Shown here one piece after another: positions 5,989 through 30,954 of a stretch of DNA of 64,000 nucleotides. The translations under genes were made by a program, and so were the position numbers. This DNA comes from an uncultured Candidatus Binatia bacterium (GTDB lineage Bacteria; Desulfobacterota; Binatia; UBA9968; JAJDTQ01). The notes under the pieces were generated by a model, which ran no database searches, was not told the DNA's origin, and saw nothing but the letters and a program-made list of their open reading frames with translations. The stretch spans positions 1,984,001 to 2,048,000 of the forward strand of contig OZ244070.1 of NCBI GenBank assembly GCA_965215605.1. Direction: 5' to 3'. Each line of letters begins with the position of its first letter. Positions within the stretch are counted from its first letter, which is position 1.

Positions 5989-6996
5989 GTGAACATCCCC
6001 GTTCTGACATTCTTCAACAACAAGAGTGGTGTCGGGAAAACGTCTCTTGTCTACCACTTGGCCTGGATACTGTCACAGACGGGGCATCGAGTCCTCACTT
6101 GTGATCTGGACCCGCAGGCCAACCTCTCCGCGGCGTTCCTTAACGAAGATCGACTGGAAAGACTGTGGGAAGGGGAAGATGGCGGCAAGACGATTTTCAA
6201 GAGCGTCAAACCACTGTTGGAGGTCGGCGATCTGTTGCCTCCCGTACTTCAGGAAATCACCCCGGAACTCAGCCTGATACCTGGCGATCTGGCCCTGTCC
6301 GGGTTTGAGGACACCTTGTCCGGGCAGTGGCCGGATGCGCTCGGCTCCGGCGACCTGTATCGTCCGTTTCGGATTCTCACGTCGTTCTGGACGGTGATGC
6401 AAGCAGGTGCGAGTGCCATGAAGGCTACCGTCATTCTCGCCGATGTGGGCCCCAACCTGGGTGCCATCAACCGTTCCGCCCTGATCGCCACGGATCATGT
6501 CGTCGTCCCACTCGGATCCGATCTCTTCTCATTCCAAGGGCTCCGCAACCTTGGCCCGACCCTCCGGCGCTGGCGCGAAGATTGGACCAAACGGATGGAC
6601 AACTGGGATTCCCTGCAATTCCCGTTGCCCGGCGGTCGGATGAAACCGCTCGGTTACATCGTTCAACAGCACAGTGTCCGACTGAGCCGCCCGGTCAAGG
6701 CGTATGACCGGTGGGTCAACAGGATGCCGGAAGAATATGGCCGTAATCTGCTTGAACAGGAGGCCCCATTCCCCGCCTCTCCACGGGAGGATGAGCATTG
6801 CCTCGCCACCGTCAAGCACTACCGGAGCCTCGTCCGCATGGGGCAGGAGAGCCGCAAGCCGATTTTCGACCTCACCACGGCGGATGGCGCAATCGGCAGC
6901 CATGCCGCCGCGGTGCACGAAGCACGCCGCGATTTCAGGGCGCTGGCGAAGTTGATTGTCGAGAAAGCGGGCCTCGCGGCCGACGGCGGTTCCTGA
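5989..6996 (+). CDS. Orphan ParA/Soj-like (AAA_31) ATPase
   Basis: FFNNKSGVGKTS deviant Walker A, DLDPQANLS, DVGPNLGAINR; GTG at 5989 is the likely start. Confidence 0.85.
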   Translation: MNIPVLTFFNNKSGVGKTSLVYHLAWILSQTGHRVLTCDLDPQANLSAAFLNEDRLERLWEGEDGGKTIFKSVKPLLEVGDLLPPVLQEITPELSLIPGDLALSGFEDTLSGQWPDALGSGDLYRPFRILTSFWTVMQAGASAMKATVILADVGPNLGAINRSALIATDHVVVPLGSDLFSFQGLRNLGPTLRRWREDWTKRMDNWDSLQFPLPGGRMKPLGYIVQQHSVRLSRPVKAYDRWVNRMPEEYGRNLLEQEAPFPASPREDEHCLATVKHYRSLVRMGQESRKPIFDLTTADGAIGSHAAAVHEARRDFRALAKLIVEKAGLAADGGS

Positions 6997-22868: not shown

Positions 22869-22960
22869 GGTACTCCTTCGTTGGTCTGGACGCCCACTCG
22901 TTAGCAAAAGCAATCCGGAATTGCCCTTGTCTCGCTTTTTGTATGGTGTATTATGGGTGT

Positions 22961-23161
22961 ATGGTACGCACTAATATCAACATCGACGACGAGGCTTGTG
23001 CGGAGGTCATGCGCCGCTATCGCCTGAACACCAAGCGTGAAGCCGTGAACTTTGCGCTCCGAGCCCTTGCGGTAGAACCCTTCGGCGTCGACGAGGCTCG
23101 GCGTCTTCGTGGGTCAGGATGGGAGGGCGACCTCGACGACATGCGGACCGGCCGCTCGTGA
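22961..23161 (+). CDS. vapB: VapB antitoxin
   Basis: RTNINIDD...TKREAVNFALR...GWEGDLDDMR; overlaps the PIN gene start; TGTATGG repeats upstream. Confidence 0.88.
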   Translation: MVRTNINIDDEACAEVMRRYRLNTKREAVNFALRALAVEPFGVDEARRLRGSGWEGDLDDMRTGRS

Positions 23162-23544
23162 TCCTGATCGACACTTCCGCGTGGGTCGAGTTTCTTCGCG
23201 ATACGGGCTCGGCGACGTGTAGTCGCGTCGACGCGGTACTCGATGACGAGATCGCGATCTGCGACGCCATTCGGATGGAGGTGCTCGCCGGAGCGCGCGA
23301 CGAGCGACATCTACAGTCACTCCGGCGTTTGCTTGCGCTTGCCACGGTGTTGCCAACGGAACCTGCCCACTACGACGACGCCGCAAGTCTCTACCGCGCC
23401 TGCCGCCGAAGAGGGGAGACCGTTCGCAAGTTGATCGATTGCCTTATCGGCGCCGTTGCCATCCGCGCCGACGCGCCTGTACTCCACAGCGATGCCGACT
23501 TTGATATCCTGGCTCGCCATACGGAACTGAAAACAGCAACATGA
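23158..23544 (+). CDS. vapC: VapC PIN-domain toxin
   Basis: ILIDTSAWVE, E, DCLI, HSDADF acidic PIN residues. Confidence 0.9.
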   Translation: MILIDTSAWVEFLRDTGSATCSRVDAVLDDEIAICDAIRMEVLAGARDERHLQSLRRLLALATVLPTEPAHYDDAASLYRACRRRGETVRKLIDCLIGAVAIRADAPVLHSDADFDILARHTELKTAT

Positions 23545-23557
23545 TAGGGACTTGGCA

Positions 23558-25054
23558 TCAGCCGGCCTCCTCGAACGCATACGCCGCTCGATAGATCGTG
23601 ATCTCGTCAAAGAGCCGGCCCACCAGCATCATTCCCACGGGCCGTCCGTCCTTGGTGGCGCCGCAGGGCAGGGAGATGGCCGGGTGGCCGGTGACGTTGA
23701 AGGGGCCGGTGTTGGCCAGCATTTCGCTGGCGCGCCGCGCGCGCTCGGCGGCATCGGCGCCGGCGGCGGGCAGGGGTGTGGCTGCCATGGGCGTGGTGGG
23801 CATGAGCAGCAGGTCGTGATCGGCGAAGACCTCGTCATAGCCCCGGCGGATGGCGCGGCGAAGCTGTTGCGCCTTGACGTAGTAGCGTCCCGGGTGGCGG
23901 CGCCGCACGAAGCCGCCGAACAGGAGCAGGGCCATCACGTTCTCGGGCAGCTCCCGCCAGCGTTGACGCCAAGCGGCGAAAGGCTCGGCAGGGCTTGACG
24001 AACCGAGACCCTCCGCGCCGGGCATGATGCCGCACATGCCCAGTGAGTGGGCCAGGCTCTCGACGTAGATGGGCTGGGCCAACAGCCAAGCCCGTTTGTG
24101 AACGGGCGCCGATACCTCGGCGACATCGAGACCGGCGGCAGCCAGGGCGCCGGCCGCGGCCCGCACGCTCTCGTCCACCTCGGCTTCCGTGTTGCGGTGT
24201 CCGAAGCCTTCCTTTACCACGGCCACTCGCAAGCCCTTGGCGCCGGCCCGGCGCGCGTGGGTGTATCGCACCGGTTGCCAGGAGCCGGGTTGACGCGGGT
24301 CCATGCCGTCGCGTCCGGCCAGGACTTCCAGTAGCAGGGCGTTGGTGTCCACGTCCCGCGTCATGGGGCCGCAGTGGTCCACGGCCGGGTCGAGGCCCAG
24401 GATGCCGGTGTAGGGGACCAGCCCGTGGCTGGGCTTGAGCCCGACGATGCCGCACCAGGCCGCCGGCACCCGGATGGAACCGGCTTGGTCGCAACCCAAG
24501 GCCATGTCCGCGTCGCCGGCCGCTACGGCCGCGGCGCTGCCCGATGACGAGCCGCCCGCGGAATAGCCGGCCTTGTGCGGATGGACGACGGGTCCATTGG
24601 CGCCGCTATGGCTGCCGCCCGAGAGGGACAAATACTCGCAGTTGGTCTTGCCGACGATCTCGGCGCCGGCGCGGAGCGCCCGGGTGACCACGGTGGCGTC
24701 GACGTCGGGTACGTAGCCCTCGACGAACGAGGCGCCGTTCATCGTGGGCAACCCTGCCACGCAGATGGAGTCCTTCACCGCCAGGGTCTTGCCCGCGAGC
24801 CGGCCGCGGTACGCTTCCCGGATGGACGTCTTCACGAACCAGGCGTTGCAGCGGTTCAGGTCCGGCTCCGGACGTTGCCAGGAGCGCCGCCGAGCCGTCG
24901 GCGCCGGTTCCGGTTCCTCGTCCACCGCCGCATAGGCGCGGGAGAGTCCTTCCATCCGCTCCAGATAACCGGCCAGTTCGTCGTCCGACAAATCAATGCC
25001 GAGATCGCCGGCCACGGCCCGCATCTGCTCCAGCGTCGGTCTGATGAAGGTCAC
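23558..25054 (-). CDS. Amidase (amidase-signature family)
   Basis: AVKD, GGSSSGSAA, DQAGSIRVP. Confidence 0.92.
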   Translation of the reverse strand: MTFIRPTLEQMRAVAGDLGIDLSDDELAGYLERMEGLSRAYAAVDEEPEPAPTARRRSWQRPEPDLNRCNAWFVKTSIREAYRGRLAGKTLAVKDSICVAGLPTMNGASFVEGYVPDVDATVVTRALRAGAEIVGKTNCEYLSLSGGSHSGANGPVVHPHKAGYSAGGSSSGSAAAVAAGDADMALGCDQAGSIRVPAAWCGIVGLKPSHGLVPYTGILGLDPAVDHCGPMTRDVDTNALLLEVLAGRDGMDPRQPGSWQPVRYTHARRAGAKGLRVAVVKEGFGHRNTEAEVDESVRAAAGALAAAGLDVAEVSAPVHKRAWLLAQPIYVESLAHSLGMCGIMPGAEGLGSSSPAEPFAAWRQRWRELPENVMALLLFGGFVRRRHPGRYYVKAQQLRRAIRRGYDEVFADHDLLLMPTTPMAATPLPAAGADAAERARRASEMLANTGPFNVTGHPAISLPCGATKDGRPVGMMLVGRLFDEITIYRAAYAFEEAG

Positions 25055-25140
25055 CGCTTTGACACCACCCGCGTGCCCACGTCAGCCTCCCCGCGCAGGT
25101 TCCGCACGTACAACTCGTCGATGAAGCCGGAGTCGTCCGG
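25051..25140 (-). pseudogene. 3' remnant of a probable ABC substrate-binding protein gene
   Basis: PDDSGFIDELYVRNLRGEADVGTRVVSKR*; its TGA overlaps the amidase GTG; SGFIDELY resembles NMT1/TauA-type C-termini. Confidence 0.5.
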
Positions 25141-25158
25141 ATCCCAAACTTCGAAGGA

Positions 25159-25701
25159 TCAGCTCAGTAGCCGGGTGTTTGCCGTCAACATAGTCAGTCC
25201 TTCTCCGGCAAAGTCCCCGTCGTCCGTCACAAGCTTCATGCCTGTCCTCCTGCATGCTTCCCCGATAACCTGATCATTGAAATCGGTTCCGCCTTTCCCA
25301 TACTCGGTGGTCAACGCCTCCATGTCCAATGCCGTGAAGCCACTTTCCATGGGTATACATTGCTTAAGAATACGCCGAGTGTCGGCGGCGATGCCGGAAG
25401 CGCCCGACTTGAAAGCGTCGCTGTTGCGGAACGTCTTGAAGTTGACAACGGAACCTTGGTGGAATTTATGATAGTGGAATCTGGCCCAGCGGTTGATGAT
25501 CTCGGACAAGACAACCACGTCGATATGGATGCGGCTTCCCGCCTCCAGGATGCGCCGAAATGCGGAGGAGTAGTAGTCTTTTCTAACTCCAGCGTGGGGC
25601 CTCTGCGGCCCATAAATGTAAAGCCAGACATTGGCGTCAAAAAACAGGTCATCCTCCGACGTAAAACGGTAGTCTTCCACGTGCAGCACCTCACCTGCCA
25701 T
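25159..25701 (-). CDS. PIN-domain nuclease
   Basis: FFDANVW, VLSEIIN, DFNDQVI, LVTDDGDF. Confidence 0.88.
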   Translation of the reverse strand: MAGEVLHVEDYRFTSEDDLFFDANVWLYIYGPQRPHAGVRKDYYSSAFRRILEAGSRIHIDVVVLSEIINRWARFHYHKFHQGSVVNFKTFRNSDAFKSGASGIAADTRRILKQCIPMESGFTALDMEALTTEYGKGGTDFNDQVIGEACRRTGMKLVTDDGDFAGEGLTMLTANTRLLS

Positions 25702-26062
25702 TGCCGCCGTCCTCGTCCTCCAAAGTCTCACGAGCCGCTTGCTTGAATCTCTCAGGGTCGCTGAAGTACAGTTTCGCGGTGTCGACGACACGCTTCAAGA
25801 GGGCTAGATCTTCGGCCTCCATGTCTTCGACCCTGAGCAATTCACGAATCTGGTTTTCCCCGAACTCACCGTACAACTGCCCGATAGCCGTGTTGAGGAA
25901 GGCTGACGTCAGCGTCGAGACGTTGAGAAACGACAGCACGACGTGGCGATTTCGCCTGAGCGTGGCTTCTAGCCGGTTGTAGACTTTCTGTCCGTCACCC
26001 GAGGCGACGCACAAGGGGCTACCGACCACACCGAATACGGATATCGCAACACTATTGTTCAT
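25691..26062 (-). CDS. STAS-like (DUF4325-type) protein
   Basis: GQKVY...VVLSFLNVSTLTSAFLNTAIGQLY, the anti-anti-sigma-like signature. Confidence 0.82.
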   Translation of the reverse strand: MNNSVAISVFGVVGSPLCVASGDGQKVYNRLEATLRRNRHVVLSFLNVSTLTSAFLNTAIGQLYGEFGENQIRELLRVEDMEAEDLALLKRVVDTAKLYFSDPERFKQAARETLEDEDGGNGR

Positions 26063-26071
26063 CGGAGGACC

Positions 26072-26944
26072 TCAAAAAATATCGTCTGTCTCGGGTTCGG
26101 AGGAAAGGCTGTAAGAACTCCGATCCGAGGTATCGATTTCGATACTCACAACGGTGCCGGGGAACGCAGTCCCCAGTTGCCCCTTGTTGTTACGTCCGTC
26201 TTCCCGTCGCCAATAGCCGGCGTCAGACACGATCTGGAGGAAGCCGCCGTTCAGATCTACGAACTCGCGCAGCAATTTCAAACCCAATCCCCCAGGGACA
26301 CCGCCGCGTTTTGTCGTGTTGTTAGCTTGGGTCGCCCATTCGATGGCGTCCTCCGGATTCAAGTCAACTCCGATATAACGGTGTACGTTACTATGTATCC
26401 CTACTCCTAAATCGGCCACACAGAAGTTAAGTTTAGATCGGGTTGGAAAAAGTTGTCCGCAACTGAAGATGCCCAGTTTTGTCCGGGAATGTAGGACGGC
26501 GTTGCTGAATATCTCGAAGATGCTCTCGCAAAACTTCTTTCGGAGGCCGGTGGACATCTCCGGTATTTCCGAGCGCTGGATGAATTCGTCCTCAATGTAA
26601 CGAGCAAAGTAGCGATCATCGTCAGCGTCGAATCGTTTGTAGGAGATCGTCGTCCCCCAGTAATCGGGAATCTTGGTGCGGCCGTAATGACTGAGGAAAC
26701 CGTTTTTCTTGAGGACGCTTTCGATCATTGGGTGGATATGGGTCAAGCGGACTGTGTTCAGATTGTCTTCCATTCCGTACAAGATTGCGCCAAAAGCGGC
26801 GCACATGTCGGCGTCAAGCCAATCCGTCGCACGCATGTCGATCTCGATATCTTCCAGGAAACAGTCCGAGGTCCGGGCATGAAGATCTGCAAGGACCCGA
26901 AATCCAGAGGAACTGTGGTGGATCGCGGACAAAGGGATTCTCAT
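26072..26944 (-). CDS. N-terminal STAS-like plus HATPase_c (anti-sigma-kinase-like) protein
   Basis: N box EIFSNAVLHS, G1 DLGVGI, G2 GGLGL, PGT; no HisKA domain. Confidence 0.82.
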   Translation of the reverse strand: MRIPLSAIHHSSSGFRVLADLHARTSDCFLEDIEIDMRATDWLDADMCAAFGAILYGMEDNLNTVRLTHIHPMIESVLKKNGFLSHYGRTKIPDYWGTTISYKRFDADDDRYFARYIEDEFIQRSEIPEMSTGLRKKFCESIFEIFSNAVLHSRTKLGIFSCGQLFPTRSKLNFCVADLGVGIHSNVHRYIGVDLNPEDAIEWATQANNTTKRGGVPGGLGLKLLREFVDLNGGFLQIVSDAGYWRREDGRNNKGQLGTAFPGTVVSIEIDTSDRSSYSLSSEPETDDIF

Positions 26945-26978
26945 GCCTGCATCCGGGCCGTTGTTGACGCGGTCCCGC

Positions 26979-28607
26979 TCACCCCCGCAGCCGCCGGTAA
27001 CGCCGGATCAACGCGTTGGTGGAGCTGTCGTGATCCAGCTCCGGCGCATCCTGGCTTTCGAGCTCCGGAACGATGCGCTGGGCCAGGGCCTTGCCGAGCT
27101 CCACGCCCCACTGGTCGAAGGAGTTGATGCCCCAGATGGAGCCCTGGACGAACACCTTGTGCTCGTAGAGGCCGATGATCTTGCCGAGGGTCTCGGGGGT
27201 CAGCCGCTCCGCCAGGATCGTGTTGGTGGGACGGTTGCCCTCGAAGGTCCGGTGCGGCACCTGGAAGTCCGGCATCCCTTCGGCGGCTGCTTCCACGCCG
27301 GTCTTGCCGAAGGCCAGCGCCTCAGTCTGCGCGAACAGGTTGGCCATCAGCAGGTCGTGGTGGTTCCCCAGGGGATTCAGGGTCCGGCAGAAGCCGATGA
27401 AGTCGCACGGGATGAGCTTCGTGCCCTGGTGGATCAACTGGTAGTAGGCGTGCTGGCCGTTGGTGCCCGGCTGTCCCCAGATGATCGGGCCGGTCTGGTA
27501 GTCCACGGCCTCGCCTTCCAGGGTGACGTGCTTGCCGTTGCTCTCCATGTCGAGTTGCTGGCAGTAGGCGCTCAGGCGCCACAGGTACTGGTCGTAGGGC
27601 AGGATGGAATGGGTCTCGGCGCCGAAGAAGTTGTTGTACCAGATGCCCAGGAGCCCCAGCAGCACCGGCAGGTTCTTCTCGAAGGGGGCAGTGCGGAAGT
27701 GCTCGTCCATGGCGTGGAGTCCGCCCAGCATGGACCGGAAGTTGTCCGGGCCGACCGCGATCATCAGCGACAGGCCGATGGCGGAGTCGTAGGAGTAGCG
27801 TCCCCCCACCCAGTCCCAGAAGCCGAACATGTTGTCGGTGTCGATGCCGAAGCGCCGTACTTCGTCGTGGTTGGTGGACACGGCCACGAAGTGACGGGCC
27901 ACGGCGGTCTCGTCCTTGAGGGCGGCCAGGCACCAGTCCCGCGCCGTGTGGGCGTTCTTCAGGGTCTCCAGGGTGGTGAAGGTCTTGGAGCTGACGATGA
28001 ACAGGGTCTCCGCCGGGTCCAGGCCCTGGGTGGTCTCGGCGAAGTCGGTGGCGTCGACGTTGGAGACGAAGCCCAAATCGAGGGAGCGGTCGCTGTAGTG
28101 GCGGAGGGCCTCGTAGGCCATCACCGGCCCCAGGTCCGAGCCGCCGATGCCGATGTTGACGACGTTGCGGATGCGCTTGCCGGTGTGACCTTTCCATTCA
28201 CCGGAGCGGACGCGGTCGGCGAAGGATGACATCCGGTCCAGCACGGCGTGCACGTCCGGCACCACATCCTCGCCGTCCGCCAGGATGCTCTGGCCGCGCG
28301 GCGCCCGCAGCGCCACGTGCAGCACCGGCCGCCCCTCGGTGACGTTGATCCGCTCGCCGCCGAACATGGCGTCGACGCGTTCCTTGACGCCGGTGGCCCG
28401 CGCCAGCTTCAGCAGCAGGCCCAGGGTCCCGTCGGTGATGCGGTTCTTGGAGTAGTCGAGGTAGAGCCCCGCGCCCTCGACGGCGAGCCGCTCGCCGCGG
28501 CTTGCGTCTTCCGCGAACAGCGCCCGCAGGTGCACGTCCTTGATCTTGTCGTAGTGCGCGGCGAGATCCTGCCACGCCGGCAGCTCGGTCAGGCGATGAG
28601 TGGCGAT
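26979..28607 (-). CDS. pgi: Glucose-6-phosphate isomerase (apparent ATC start)
   Basis: [37 protein letters not shown]; conserved N-terminus [10 protein letters not shown] lies upstream of the track's GTG. Confidence 0.95.
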
Positions 28608-30174: not shown

Positions 30175-30513
30175 CTATGGCTTCGCGGGGCGGGCTTCGT
30201 TGTCGAGCGTGGCAATGCCGGTCAACGTAATCGGAGGACGGTCAGGGAATTCCGCCACAAGGCTTAGCTTGCCACCCATTGCTTCAACGTAGCCGCTGAG
30301 CGTGGATATCAGCAGGTCGCTGCGTTTCTCGATTCGCGACACGTTTTCCTGCTTGATTCCGAGTTCCTTGGCCACGTGCACTTGTGTCTTCTTGCGCGCC
30401 TTACGCAGGGCTTGTAAGGACATTTCCTCTGCGATCAGTATCTTCGCCCGCTCTTCTACTTTCTTCCGGCGTGCCTTCGGCAGCTTCTCAATTCTCTCCG
30501 CGAGGGTCGTCAT
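30175..30513 (-). CDS. XRE/HigA-like antitoxin
   Basis: SLQALRKARKKTQVHVAKELGIKQENVSRIEKRSDLLISTL..YVEAMGG. Confidence 0.9.
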   Translation of the reverse strand: MTTLAERIEKLPKARRKKVEERAKILIAEEMSLQALRKARKKTQVHVAKELGIKQENVSRIEKRSDLLISTLSGYVEAMGGKLSLVAEFPDRPPITLTGIATLDNEARPAKP

Positions 30514-30581
30514 AATATAATCTTTCAATATATGGCTGGGTTTAGAGCCCTATTGTCCCAGTGTTCACTACGCCAGTTTTG

Positions 30582-30954
30582 TCATCGCGACCTCCTTCCC
30601 TGCGCTAACCGGTCCAAATGCGCGTCGAACCTCTCGTCAGCCTTCTTGATCAGCGCCCTATAAAAGCGTCTTGCGTTCACGCCCGACCTGCTTGTCACCC
30701 GCCACGAGGACAATCGCTTGCCGCCGCGGATCAAACGCGAAAGCGACTCGCCAAACTCCGTCATCGGCTTGAAAGCGCAACTCCTTCATGTTGGTGTGGC
30801 GTGATCCCTTCAGAGCGTCCACCTGGGGGCGACCCAGCGTCGGCCCAAACGCTTCCAGACGCCTCGCTTGTGCGAGCAGTTCATCCTGTACGGAGTTGGC
30901 CAAGGAATCGAATTCCGGGTCGAATGCAGGATCGAATTCGACTTTCCAAGCCAT
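30582..30954 (-). pseudogene. RelE/HigB-family toxin, frameshifted
   Basis: GPTLGRPQVDALKGSRHTNMKELRF...VAGDK continues in another frame as SGVNARRFY...ADERF; extra CAGG at 30687-30690. Confidence 0.85.

Follow-up and report, generated by a model that had tools for sequence, protein, structure and literature searches.

A probable vapKSC operon at a variable chromosomal site of an uncultured Candidatus Binatia bacterium

The window considered here is a stretch of 64,000 nucleotides (nt) from an uncultured Candidatus Binatia bacterium (contig OZ244070.1, positions 1,984,001 to 2,048,000). On its minus strand, it harbours a compact trio of genes for a protein with a STAS and a GHKL domain, a STAS-like protein and a PIN-domain protein. 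The trio is very probably an intact, horizontally acquired vapKSC operon, a three-component toxin–antitoxin and anti-phage module. This identification is based on homology and domain architecture, on the conservation of the residues tested in the published system as well as of the order and spacing of the genes, and on horizontal spread. An earlier note, made from the letters of the sequence, had taken the trio for a candidate partner-switching toxin or defence system and left open whether it had been described. It has been: the system was published and named VapKSC in 2026 (preprint in February, paper in June), and the second and third proteins match the structure PDB 9z7o. The residual novelty is contextual.

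Organisation of the locus

The trio and the DNA insert that carries it are delimited as follows.

26072..26944, minus strand: gene 1 (vapK), open reading frame (ORF) of 290 amino acids (aa), predicted STAS-fold domain followed by a GHKL kinase/ATPase
25691..26062, minus strand: gene 2 (vapS), ORF of 123 aa, putative STAS-like DUF4325 antitoxin
25159..25701, minus strand: gene 3 (vapC), 180 aa from an ATG start codon, putative PIN-domain nuclease toxin
25054..26982, no strand: low-GC (guanine–cytosine) insert, approximate extent, made up of the cassette with spacers of about 104 nt and about 34 nt, drawn from the GC profile and the comparison within the genus

Genes 1 and 2 are 9 nt apart, and the vapC start lies 11 nt inside vapS, giving these two genes an 11-nt overlap. 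A mechanical ORF list also allows the frame of gene 3 to be read longer, from a GTG at 25791. The GC content is 0.50–0.56 over positions 25200–26999 versus 0.65–0.72 on either flank. Directly upstream of the trio lies pgi (PF00342, E=2.6e-223), and downstream lies an amidase gene (PF01425, E=7.5e-94). The tight coupling of the three genes and the insertion of an AT-rich trio behind pgi, both pointed out in the earlier note, are thus borne out by the ORF coordinates, the composition and the neighbouring gene. The flanks as a whole are of a housekeeping nature and comprise pgi, the amidase gene, a carboxylase subunit and an aldo-keto reductase. A repeat search detected no terminal repeats of note bounding the low-GC island, and a promoter and terminator scan gave background levels. 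The cassette and its flanks contain neither a sigma factor gene nor a PP2C phosphatase gene. The window copy also lacks any trace of mod or res, the genes of type III restriction-modification (R-M) systems.

The published VapKSC system

VapKSC was named by Chambers, Rani, Min, Villa and Corbett (EMBO J, June 2026, PMC13373217), whose bioRxiv version is dated 5 February 2026. Within the literature searched, the term was found in this paper and its bioRxiv version alone, and searches with domain words turned up only a PIN classification from 2017. The paper defines vapKSC as a three-gene operon that encodes VapK, a CapK-like STAS+GHKL kinase devoid of a helix-turn-helix (HTH) domain, VapS, a STAS protein whose C-terminal region is short, and a PIN protein of the VapC type. 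Of the 289 instances that it reports, 36% lie within 10 kb of another defence gene (PMC13373217).

The experimental work was done with the operon of Escherichia sp. E4736, for which a crystal structure of a 2:2 VapS–VapC complex is available (PDB 9z7o). The Escherichia VapC is toxic, and the D28A exchange abolishes its toxicity. VapS alone neutralises VapC in vivo, and deletion of the VapS C-terminus or the S48E exchange removes the neutralisation; the phosphomimetic S48E variant no longer binds or co-purifies with VapC. The operon protects E. coli against phage Bas42 by about 2 logs (about 100-fold), and this protection is lost in the variants VapC D28A, VapS S48A and VapK F54A (PMC13373217). 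Because VapK was insoluble, the phosphorylation of VapS by VapK and the activation of VapK by single-stranded DNA (ssDNA) were inferred from experiments with the related CapK/CapS pair and from AlphaFold 3 models (PMC13373217).

VapS and VapC

The assignment of the window trio to VapKSC is supported by 9z7o, which is the sole significant PDB match both for VapS and, with family profiles, for VapC. Gene 2 matches PF14213 (DUF4325, "STAS-like"; E=2.6e-16), and the Pfam scan of VapS returned this family only, with no HTH or other DNA-binding family. The only PDB match of VapS is chain 9z7o_A ("Escherichia VapS"), with E=1.2e-15 for the single sequence, aligned over residues 12–116, and E=5.9e-21 for a profile of the 37-sequence family. 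About 40% of the positions are identical to Escherichia VapS, as judged by eye in the alignment. S53 of the window protein aligns with the Ser of a FASPFF stretch at chain position 66, which corresponds to native S48 if the chain carries an 18-residue tag (134 chain residues versus about 116 native ones, by our arithmetic). Of 73 sequences, 71 have Ser and two have Thr at position 53, and all have T52. From this alignment and conservation, S53 is predicted to be the phospho-acceptor of VapS. The C-terminal tail of VapS is helical and aligns to the tail of Escherichia VapS, and seven C-terminal residues are invariant in 37 sequences (D85, L89, R91, V92, A96, K97 and F100).

Gene 3 matches the PIN family PF01850 (E=1.9e-6); in NCBIfam, VapC gave only irrelevant sub-threshold matches to aspartate kinases. 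A profile of 38 VapC sequences matches 9z7o_C ("Escherichia VapC") with E=1.1e-10 over 173 positions, that is, over the full length, and the next match follows at E=0.37. D22 of the window protein aligns with position 28 of this chain, the catalytic D28 of Escherichia VapC. It is conserved in 73 of 74 sequences, and the further acidic residues E67, D140, D143 and D161 are each found in 74 of 74.

VapK

The first gene product comprises a STAS-fold domain (residues ~1–90) and a GHKL domain of the Bergerat fold (~125–285). Its only Pfam match is a weak one to HATPase_c (E=1e-3, below the cut-off), neither HisKA nor HTH families being matched, and NCBIfam returned irrelevant sub-threshold histidine kinase matches alone. 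An AlphaFold2 model built from 22 homologues (mean predicted local distance difference test score, pLDDT, 74; predicted template modelling score, pTM, 0.79) opens directly with the first STAS strand and shows a beta-alpha-beta-alpha-beta-alpha domain followed by the Bergerat fold. Foldseek searches with this model lead to generic GHKL proteins, such as Hsp90/TRAP1, histidine kinases, Topo VI-B and GyrB.

Residues 1–105 were also modelled alone from 41 homologues (pLDDT 79.7). Compared by VIA-align with 48,161 chains, this model reaches Z scores of 10.8–7.2 with a root-mean-square deviation (rmsd) of about 2 Å over 86–89 residues, and nearly all of the top 25 rows are STAS proteins, namely SulP STAS domains, RsbV, SpoIIAA, RsbS and MlaB. 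Foldseek likewise places RsbV (6m36_D; TM 0.69/0.72, rmsd 2.1) and SpoIIAA near the top, the E-values of these matches being weak (0.04–0.1). A profile–profile comparison of the VapK and VapS families by hhalign detected no relationship of the N-terminal domain of VapK (probability 0.4%), so the assignment of this domain is a structural one. At the level of the predicted models, the N-terminal domain of VapK is confirmed as a STAS fold.

The motif residues of the GHKL domain are invariant in all 80 sequences, namely E144 and N148 of the N-box, D178 and G180 of the G1 box, and G218, G219 and G221 of the G2 box. N148 belongs to the E-x-x-x-N motif and is the counterpart of N218 in CapK, an equivalence drawn from the motif and not from an alignment to CapK. 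The position at which SpoIIAA-type proteins carry their acceptor is occupied by D44-A45-D46 (A45 in 79 and D46 in 80 of 80 sequences). Candidates for the conserved aromatic residue of the predicted ssDNA site are W42, present in 79 of 80 sequences, Y56, present in 72 of 80, and position 51, which is F in 68, L in 11 and I in 1. A profile search of the PDB with VapK found no VapK or CapK structure, its sole match being the histidine-kinase domain of a plant protein (4pl9, E=2.4e-4). Predictions of a VapK–VapS complex from the alignments A1 and A2, run without controls, scored 0.24, 0.47 and 0.21 against a mark of 0.32 and are weighed neither way.

The description that the earlier note had given of the three proteins is upheld. 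It had joined a STAS-like region to a complete GHKL ATPase with no HisKA domain in gene 1, which agrees with the fold, the invariant motifs and the missing HisKA match, and it had singled out the DAD at the phosphoacceptor position, which proves to be conserved. Gene 2 had been read as a lone STAS-like protein with an LTSAF site, in line with PF14213 and with the Ser/Thr found at position 53 in all 73 sequences. The PIN domain of gene 3 does have its acidic residues intact. Its lack of a VapB-like partner is equally correct, the gene upstream of it matching DUF4325 only and no VapB, ribbon-helix-helix (RHH) or AbrB-type domain.

A second DUF4325 protein is encoded elsewhere in the same genome (L084:655-1698, plus strand; G000:C1, ~3.93 Mb). 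It is a single chain of 348 aa with a weak MarR-like HTH, a HATPase_c_2 match (E=2.2e-5) and a C-terminal DUF4325 (E=2.9e-15), its kinase-like and STAS-like parts being fused in the order opposite to that of VapK.

Family size, conservation and spread

A word-based search with VapK returned 1368 proteins at E<=1e-3; among the best 120 of these 1368 matches, nearly all are 290 aa long and at least 63% identical. In an exhaustive profile search of 1.84 billion cluster representatives, the number of clusters matched, counted at 50% identity, was 3035 for E<=1e-3 and fell to 1445 for E<=1e-10 and 577 for E<=1e-30. Judged by these similarity searches, with 577 clusters at the strictest and 1445 at the intermediate threshold, the VapK family is much larger than the 289 published instances.

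For a closer comparison, 81 related loci were assembled, 80 of them kept from 170 relatives in species-representative genomes, together with the first scan. One candidate of the first scan (L004), which shares only the GHKL domain at 26% identity, is no relative and was left out of all counts. According to the record titles, the hosts include Binatia, Nitrospirota, Chloroflexota (Caldilineaceae, Dehalococcoidia, Anaerolineales), Thermodesulfobacteriota, Leptonemataceae and several Acidobacteriota. Nitrosomonas, Methylomonas, Legionellaceae, Zetaproteobacteria, Latescibacterota and Planctomycetaceae are also represented, as are Poribacteria, Entotheonellaceae, Sumerlaeota and Hydrogenedentales.

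Searched by tblastn with the three proteins of the window, the STAS gene adjoins vapK in all 81 loci and the PIN gene is present in 79; the other two (L016, L062) stop at a contig edge right after the STAS gene. Conservation of the trio across genomes had been set beforehand as a test of the earlier proposal, and the trio is indeed conserved. The order is vapK–vapS–vapC in 79 loci and vapS–vapC–vapK in two (L039, L050). With start codons picked by a heuristic, 64 of 81 loci have a gap of 7–15 nt between vapK and vapS, which in 43 measures exactly 10 nt, and the overlap of vapS and vapC is exactly 11 nt in 46 of 78. The proteins are 56–66% identical to the window copy across more than 10 phyla. 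Such identity over this range of hosts, combined with nearly fixed spacing, points to frequent horizontal transfer of the whole vapKSC unit.

Carriage on mobile elements is rare. Among 72,556 plasmid records, only one was matched, plasmid P5 of Deinococcus gobiensis, which carries a 32%-identical copy annotated as ATP-binding, STAS-like domain and PIN domain proteins in the same order. Three of 50,697 phage records gave weak matches.

Some copies are decaying. In L003, only 145 aa of vapK are left, and L030 and L041 retain no more than the C-terminal part of the PIN gene. L052 combines an internal stop in vapK with a gap of 286 nt between vapK and vapS. By contrast, the ORFs of the window copy are intact and all residues that were tested in the paper and can be mapped here are conserved, so that this copy looks functional from its sequence.

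Acquisition at the pgi–amidase junction

The DNA spanning the amidase gene, the trio and pgi was searched in 40 relatives, including 24 other genomes of the genus. Among these 24, only three (G009, G012, G004) harbour the trio, at 83–87% nucleotide identity. In three others (G022, G014, G024), pgi is joined to the amidase gene with 17–64 nt between them. Their homology to the window ends at 25043–25053 and resumes at 26972–26983, and these break points give the insert a size of about 1.93 kb.

The closest relative, G021, has an amidase gene that is 97% identical to that of the window (L089/L110; G021:C1 ~2643824) and lacks window positions 25192–26856. It retains 33 nt at the 3' end of vapC and 88 nt at the 5' end of vapK. 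These retained ends represent a deletion scar and imply that the cassette was lost in this genome rather than never gained.

At least 12 other genomes of the genus carry differing cargo of 3–17 kb at the same junction (L097–L109). A scan of 86 ORFs from this cargo revealed five N6_N4 DNA methylases, two ResIII and three PD-Lambda-2_B matches; SNF2, GmrSD, NERD, ParB_N and HicB were found as well, besides metabolic genes. The pgi–amidase junction is thus a variable site that often holds defence genes, and the window cassette was acquired horizontally into it.

Type III restriction-modification context

Clustering of up to four neighbours per side at the 81 loci revealed one gene family directly upstream in 32 loci and another directly downstream in 17. 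The upstream family encodes a DNA methylase (PF01555, E=5.5e-42; PADLOC MTase_III, E=1.7e-117) with a length of about 750 aa. The downstream family encodes a ResIII helicase-nuclease of about 892 aa (PF04851, E=2.7e-14; PADLOC REase_III, E=6.9e-17) with a weak TnsA-like match at its C-terminus. In a stricter recount, a type III mod gene directly upstream and/or a res gene directly downstream was present in 43 of the 81 loci (mod in 42, res in 27 and both at full length in 13), several of which are clipped by contig ends. Short remnants occur too: 12 loci have only such a remnant of mod, and seven have one of res. Neither gene was found in 34 loci, and four leave too little sequence for a judgement on one side or both.

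The junctions are tight. Where vapK starts at locus position 6001, every listed full-length mod ORF next to it ends at 6004, a 4-nt overlap, and res starts 1–6 nt after the vapC stop in the seven loci compared. The clade of the window copy is therefore frequently nested in type III R-M operons, with solo cassettes persisting beside R-M stubs. This is a modest addition to the known context of the system: the VapKSC paper uses neither "Type III" nor "methyltransferase" in its main text, though its Dataset EV3 may show such contexts (PMC13373217). That text notes R-M adjacency for the related capKS pair, for which it proposes coordination with R-M systems, and not for vapKSC (PMC13373217).

In seven loci, vapC is followed directly by a pair of PD-T4-4/PDC-M47 genes (PD-T4-4_A, E=9.8e-159). 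In a Caldilineaceae metagenome-assembled genome (L045:3857-12492), the succession mod–vapK–vapS–vapC–PD-T4-4/PDC-M47 A and B–res of type III lies on one strand with short gaps. In four further loci (L041, L042, L046, L065), res is located upstream of mod, and the same vapKSC and PD-T4-4 genes follow downstream. Among further neighbours of a defence type, a Schlafen/AlbA_2 protein with HATPase_c_4 is encoded near the cassette in four loci (e.g., L060:8237-9553), and a SLATT/DUF4231 membrane protein in four Poribacteria loci (e.g., L067:211-669).

Proposed mechanism and relation to known systems

In the resting state, VapC would be held inactive in a complex with VapS, which would bind it via the STAS domain and extend its C-terminal helix toward the nuclease active site. 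A stress signal, in the published proposal ssDNA arising from DNA damage or phage infection, would switch VapK on. Active VapK would then phosphorylate VapS on its conserved Ser (S53 here), the phosphorylated VapS would leave VapC, and free VapC would cleave RNA and arrest growth. Three elements of this scheme, the phosphorylation of VapS by VapK, the ssDNA trigger and the RNA substrate, are inferences in the paper and here alike. The earlier note had proposed that a kinase and a STAS protein control a PIN RNase via phosphorylation, the RNase being set free when a trigger such as phage alters the phosphorylation of the STAS protein. This part matches the published model, so that reading the raw sequence led to the mechanism that the experimental paper describes. 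The SpoIIAA-type framing, in contrast, did not stand, as the STAS protein is a direct antitoxin of the nuclease and no SpoIIAA-type switch between a kinase and a sigma factor is involved.

The window cassette resembles the Escherichia sp. [quoted passage not shown] It differs in being a divergent copy, with VapS about two-fifths identical by eye and VapC detectable by profile only, in residing in an uncultured, high-GC, Binatia-like bacterium, and in belonging to a clade often found in type III R-M operons.

Several observations speak against an unreserved assignment. VapC as a single sequence finds 9z7o_C as its only PDB match, yet not at a significant level (E=0.085), and its identity is low. 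VapK is placed with its putative homologue in Escherichia sp. E4736 (WP_135559716.1) by architecture and motifs. F51, a candidate counterpart of Escherichia F54, is Phe in just 68 of 80 sequences. Kinase activity and the ssDNA trigger are proposed features of any VapK, the protein having been insoluble (PMC13373217). Toxicity, neutralisation and phage protection are carried over by analogy from the Escherichia orthologue to the copy of this Binatia-like host. Finally, PADLOC-DB 2.0.0 (2023), which predates the VapKSC paper, has no model for the system; it gave a weak DrmA match to the GHKL domain (E=8.1e-5) and no match for VapS or VapC.

CapK/CapS shares with the window proteins a GHKL kinase with an internal STAS domain and a STAS substrate, which in CapS is phosphorylated on a conserved Ser (PMC13373217). 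Both systems are linked to defence loci, often beside R-M systems. However, CapK has an N-terminal HTH and CapS a C-terminal winged HTH, and together they repress transcription (PMC13373217), whereas the window VapK opens with its STAS domain, VapS ends in a short helical tail devoid of a DNA-binding domain and the output would be a nuclease.

As in canonical VapBC systems, a PIN toxin would be neutralised by a protein encoded just upstream, the C-terminal part of which comes close to the active site. Unlike them, the antitoxin VapS has a STAS fold and is not a DNA binder of the RHH, AbrB or VapB type, and its release is proposed to occur via phosphorylation, not proteolysis. A pairing of the vapS–vapC type is described for the PIN.4 subgroup of Matelska, Steczkiewicz and Ginalski (NAR 2017, PMC5499597). 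The likeness lies in the described pairing and not in a classification of VapC, and that description proposes neither a kinase nor a function (PMC5499597).

Alternative explanations

The folds of the GHKL and STAS domains are those of RsbW/RsbV and SpoIIAB/SpoIIAA, in which the Ser that opens helix 2 of the STAS protein is the target of a GHKL Ser kinase. A strict switch of this kind could therefore be considered, with the GHKL protein acting as a stoichiometric anti-factor of the PIN protein and the STAS protein competing for the GHKL protein rather than serving as antitoxin. This arrangement is highly improbable. The complex that was solved is VapS2VapC2, and VapS by itself neutralises VapC in vivo (PMC13373217). 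In addition, vapS and vapC are a translationally overlapping pair, and the sigma factor target and the PP2C phosphatase of the SpoIIAB–SpoIIAA and RsbW–RsbV systems have no genes in the cassette or its flanks. VapK further differs from the kinases of those systems in carrying a STAS domain of its own that, with D-A-D at the acceptor position, would be non-phosphorylatable.

The cassette might also be mainly an addiction module that stabilises itself and a neighbouring island by post-segregational killing and offers the host no meaningful phage defence. Often, the cassette is all that survives intact of a type III R-M operon in decay, and at least 12 loci have an intact trio flanked by short mod/res remnants. 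The window cassette stands alone among housekeeping genes, and the deletion scar in the closest relative shows that the cassette can be lost. Against a purely addictive role stands the Escherichia operon, which protected against phage, a protection that all three point mutants lost (PMC13373217). The kinase input is also elaborate for pure addiction. A role in addiction alone is rather unlikely, and the roles in addiction and defence are not mutually exclusive. A further explanation, tentative but less remote than this one, ties the trigger to type III R-M, so that VapK would sense DNA ends or ssDNA from Res cutting, or a failure or inhibition of the R-M system in the manner of a PrrC-like guard, and not DNA damage in general. 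The adjacency of mod and/or res in more than half of the loci, the 4-nt overlap of mod and vapK, the start of res within a few nucleotides of vapC and the type III identity assigned by PADLOC are in favour of it, as is the R-M coordination that the paper proposes for CapKS (PMC13373217). However, the window copy and 34 of the 81 loci are devoid of adjacent mod and res genes, which implies that the cassette must be able to function, or at any rate to persist, on its own. The Escherichia operon conferred protection when cloned alone (PMC13373217), and adjacency is no evidence of signalling.

Applied to the clade as a whole, this line of thought would make vapKSC a built-in, translationally coupled middle section of type III R-M operons of the order mod–vapKSC–res, or sometimes mod–vapKSC–PD-T4-4–res, in which the processing of DNA by Res, or its failure, feeds VapK and thereby couples restriction to a second-line nuclease. 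Such a coupling is conceivable, though we give it well under an even chance. As a toxin–antitoxin module, the cassette would outlive the R-M genes, which would explain both the solo copies flanked by mod/res stubs and the clean solo copies such as that of the window. The nesting pattern is compatible with functional coupling and with addictive persistence, and demonstrates neither. A precedent for such nesting exists in a different protein family. PrrC is an anticodon nuclease embedded in a type I R-M locus (EcoprrI) and is held in check by the R-M enzyme itself. A vapKSC cassette nested among R-M genes may, by analogy only, resemble it as an RNA-cleaving suicide effector that forms a second line of defence, the two families being unrelated.

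Taken alone, the window copy carries little weight and adds a further orthologue to a system known since 2026. The joining of about half of the loci to a type III R-M operon, on the other hand, offers a natural system in which the coupling of restriction to a kinase-gated toxin can be tested.

Further toxin–antitoxin genes in the window

A canonical VapB–VapC pair lies at 22943–23544 on the plus strand, 1.6 kb from the cassette and just past the amidase gene. It consists of a VapB protein (PF09957, E=1.4e-14; 22943–23161) and a PIN protein (PF01850, E=2.6e-16; 23119–23544). A second short low-GC patch (0.53–0.57) is located at 30175–30954 on the minus strand and contains two small ORFs. Judged by eye, the ORF at 30954..30658 (98 aa) resembles one for a Gp49/HigB-like toxin and that at 30528..30175 (117 aa) one for an XRE-type HTH antitoxin.

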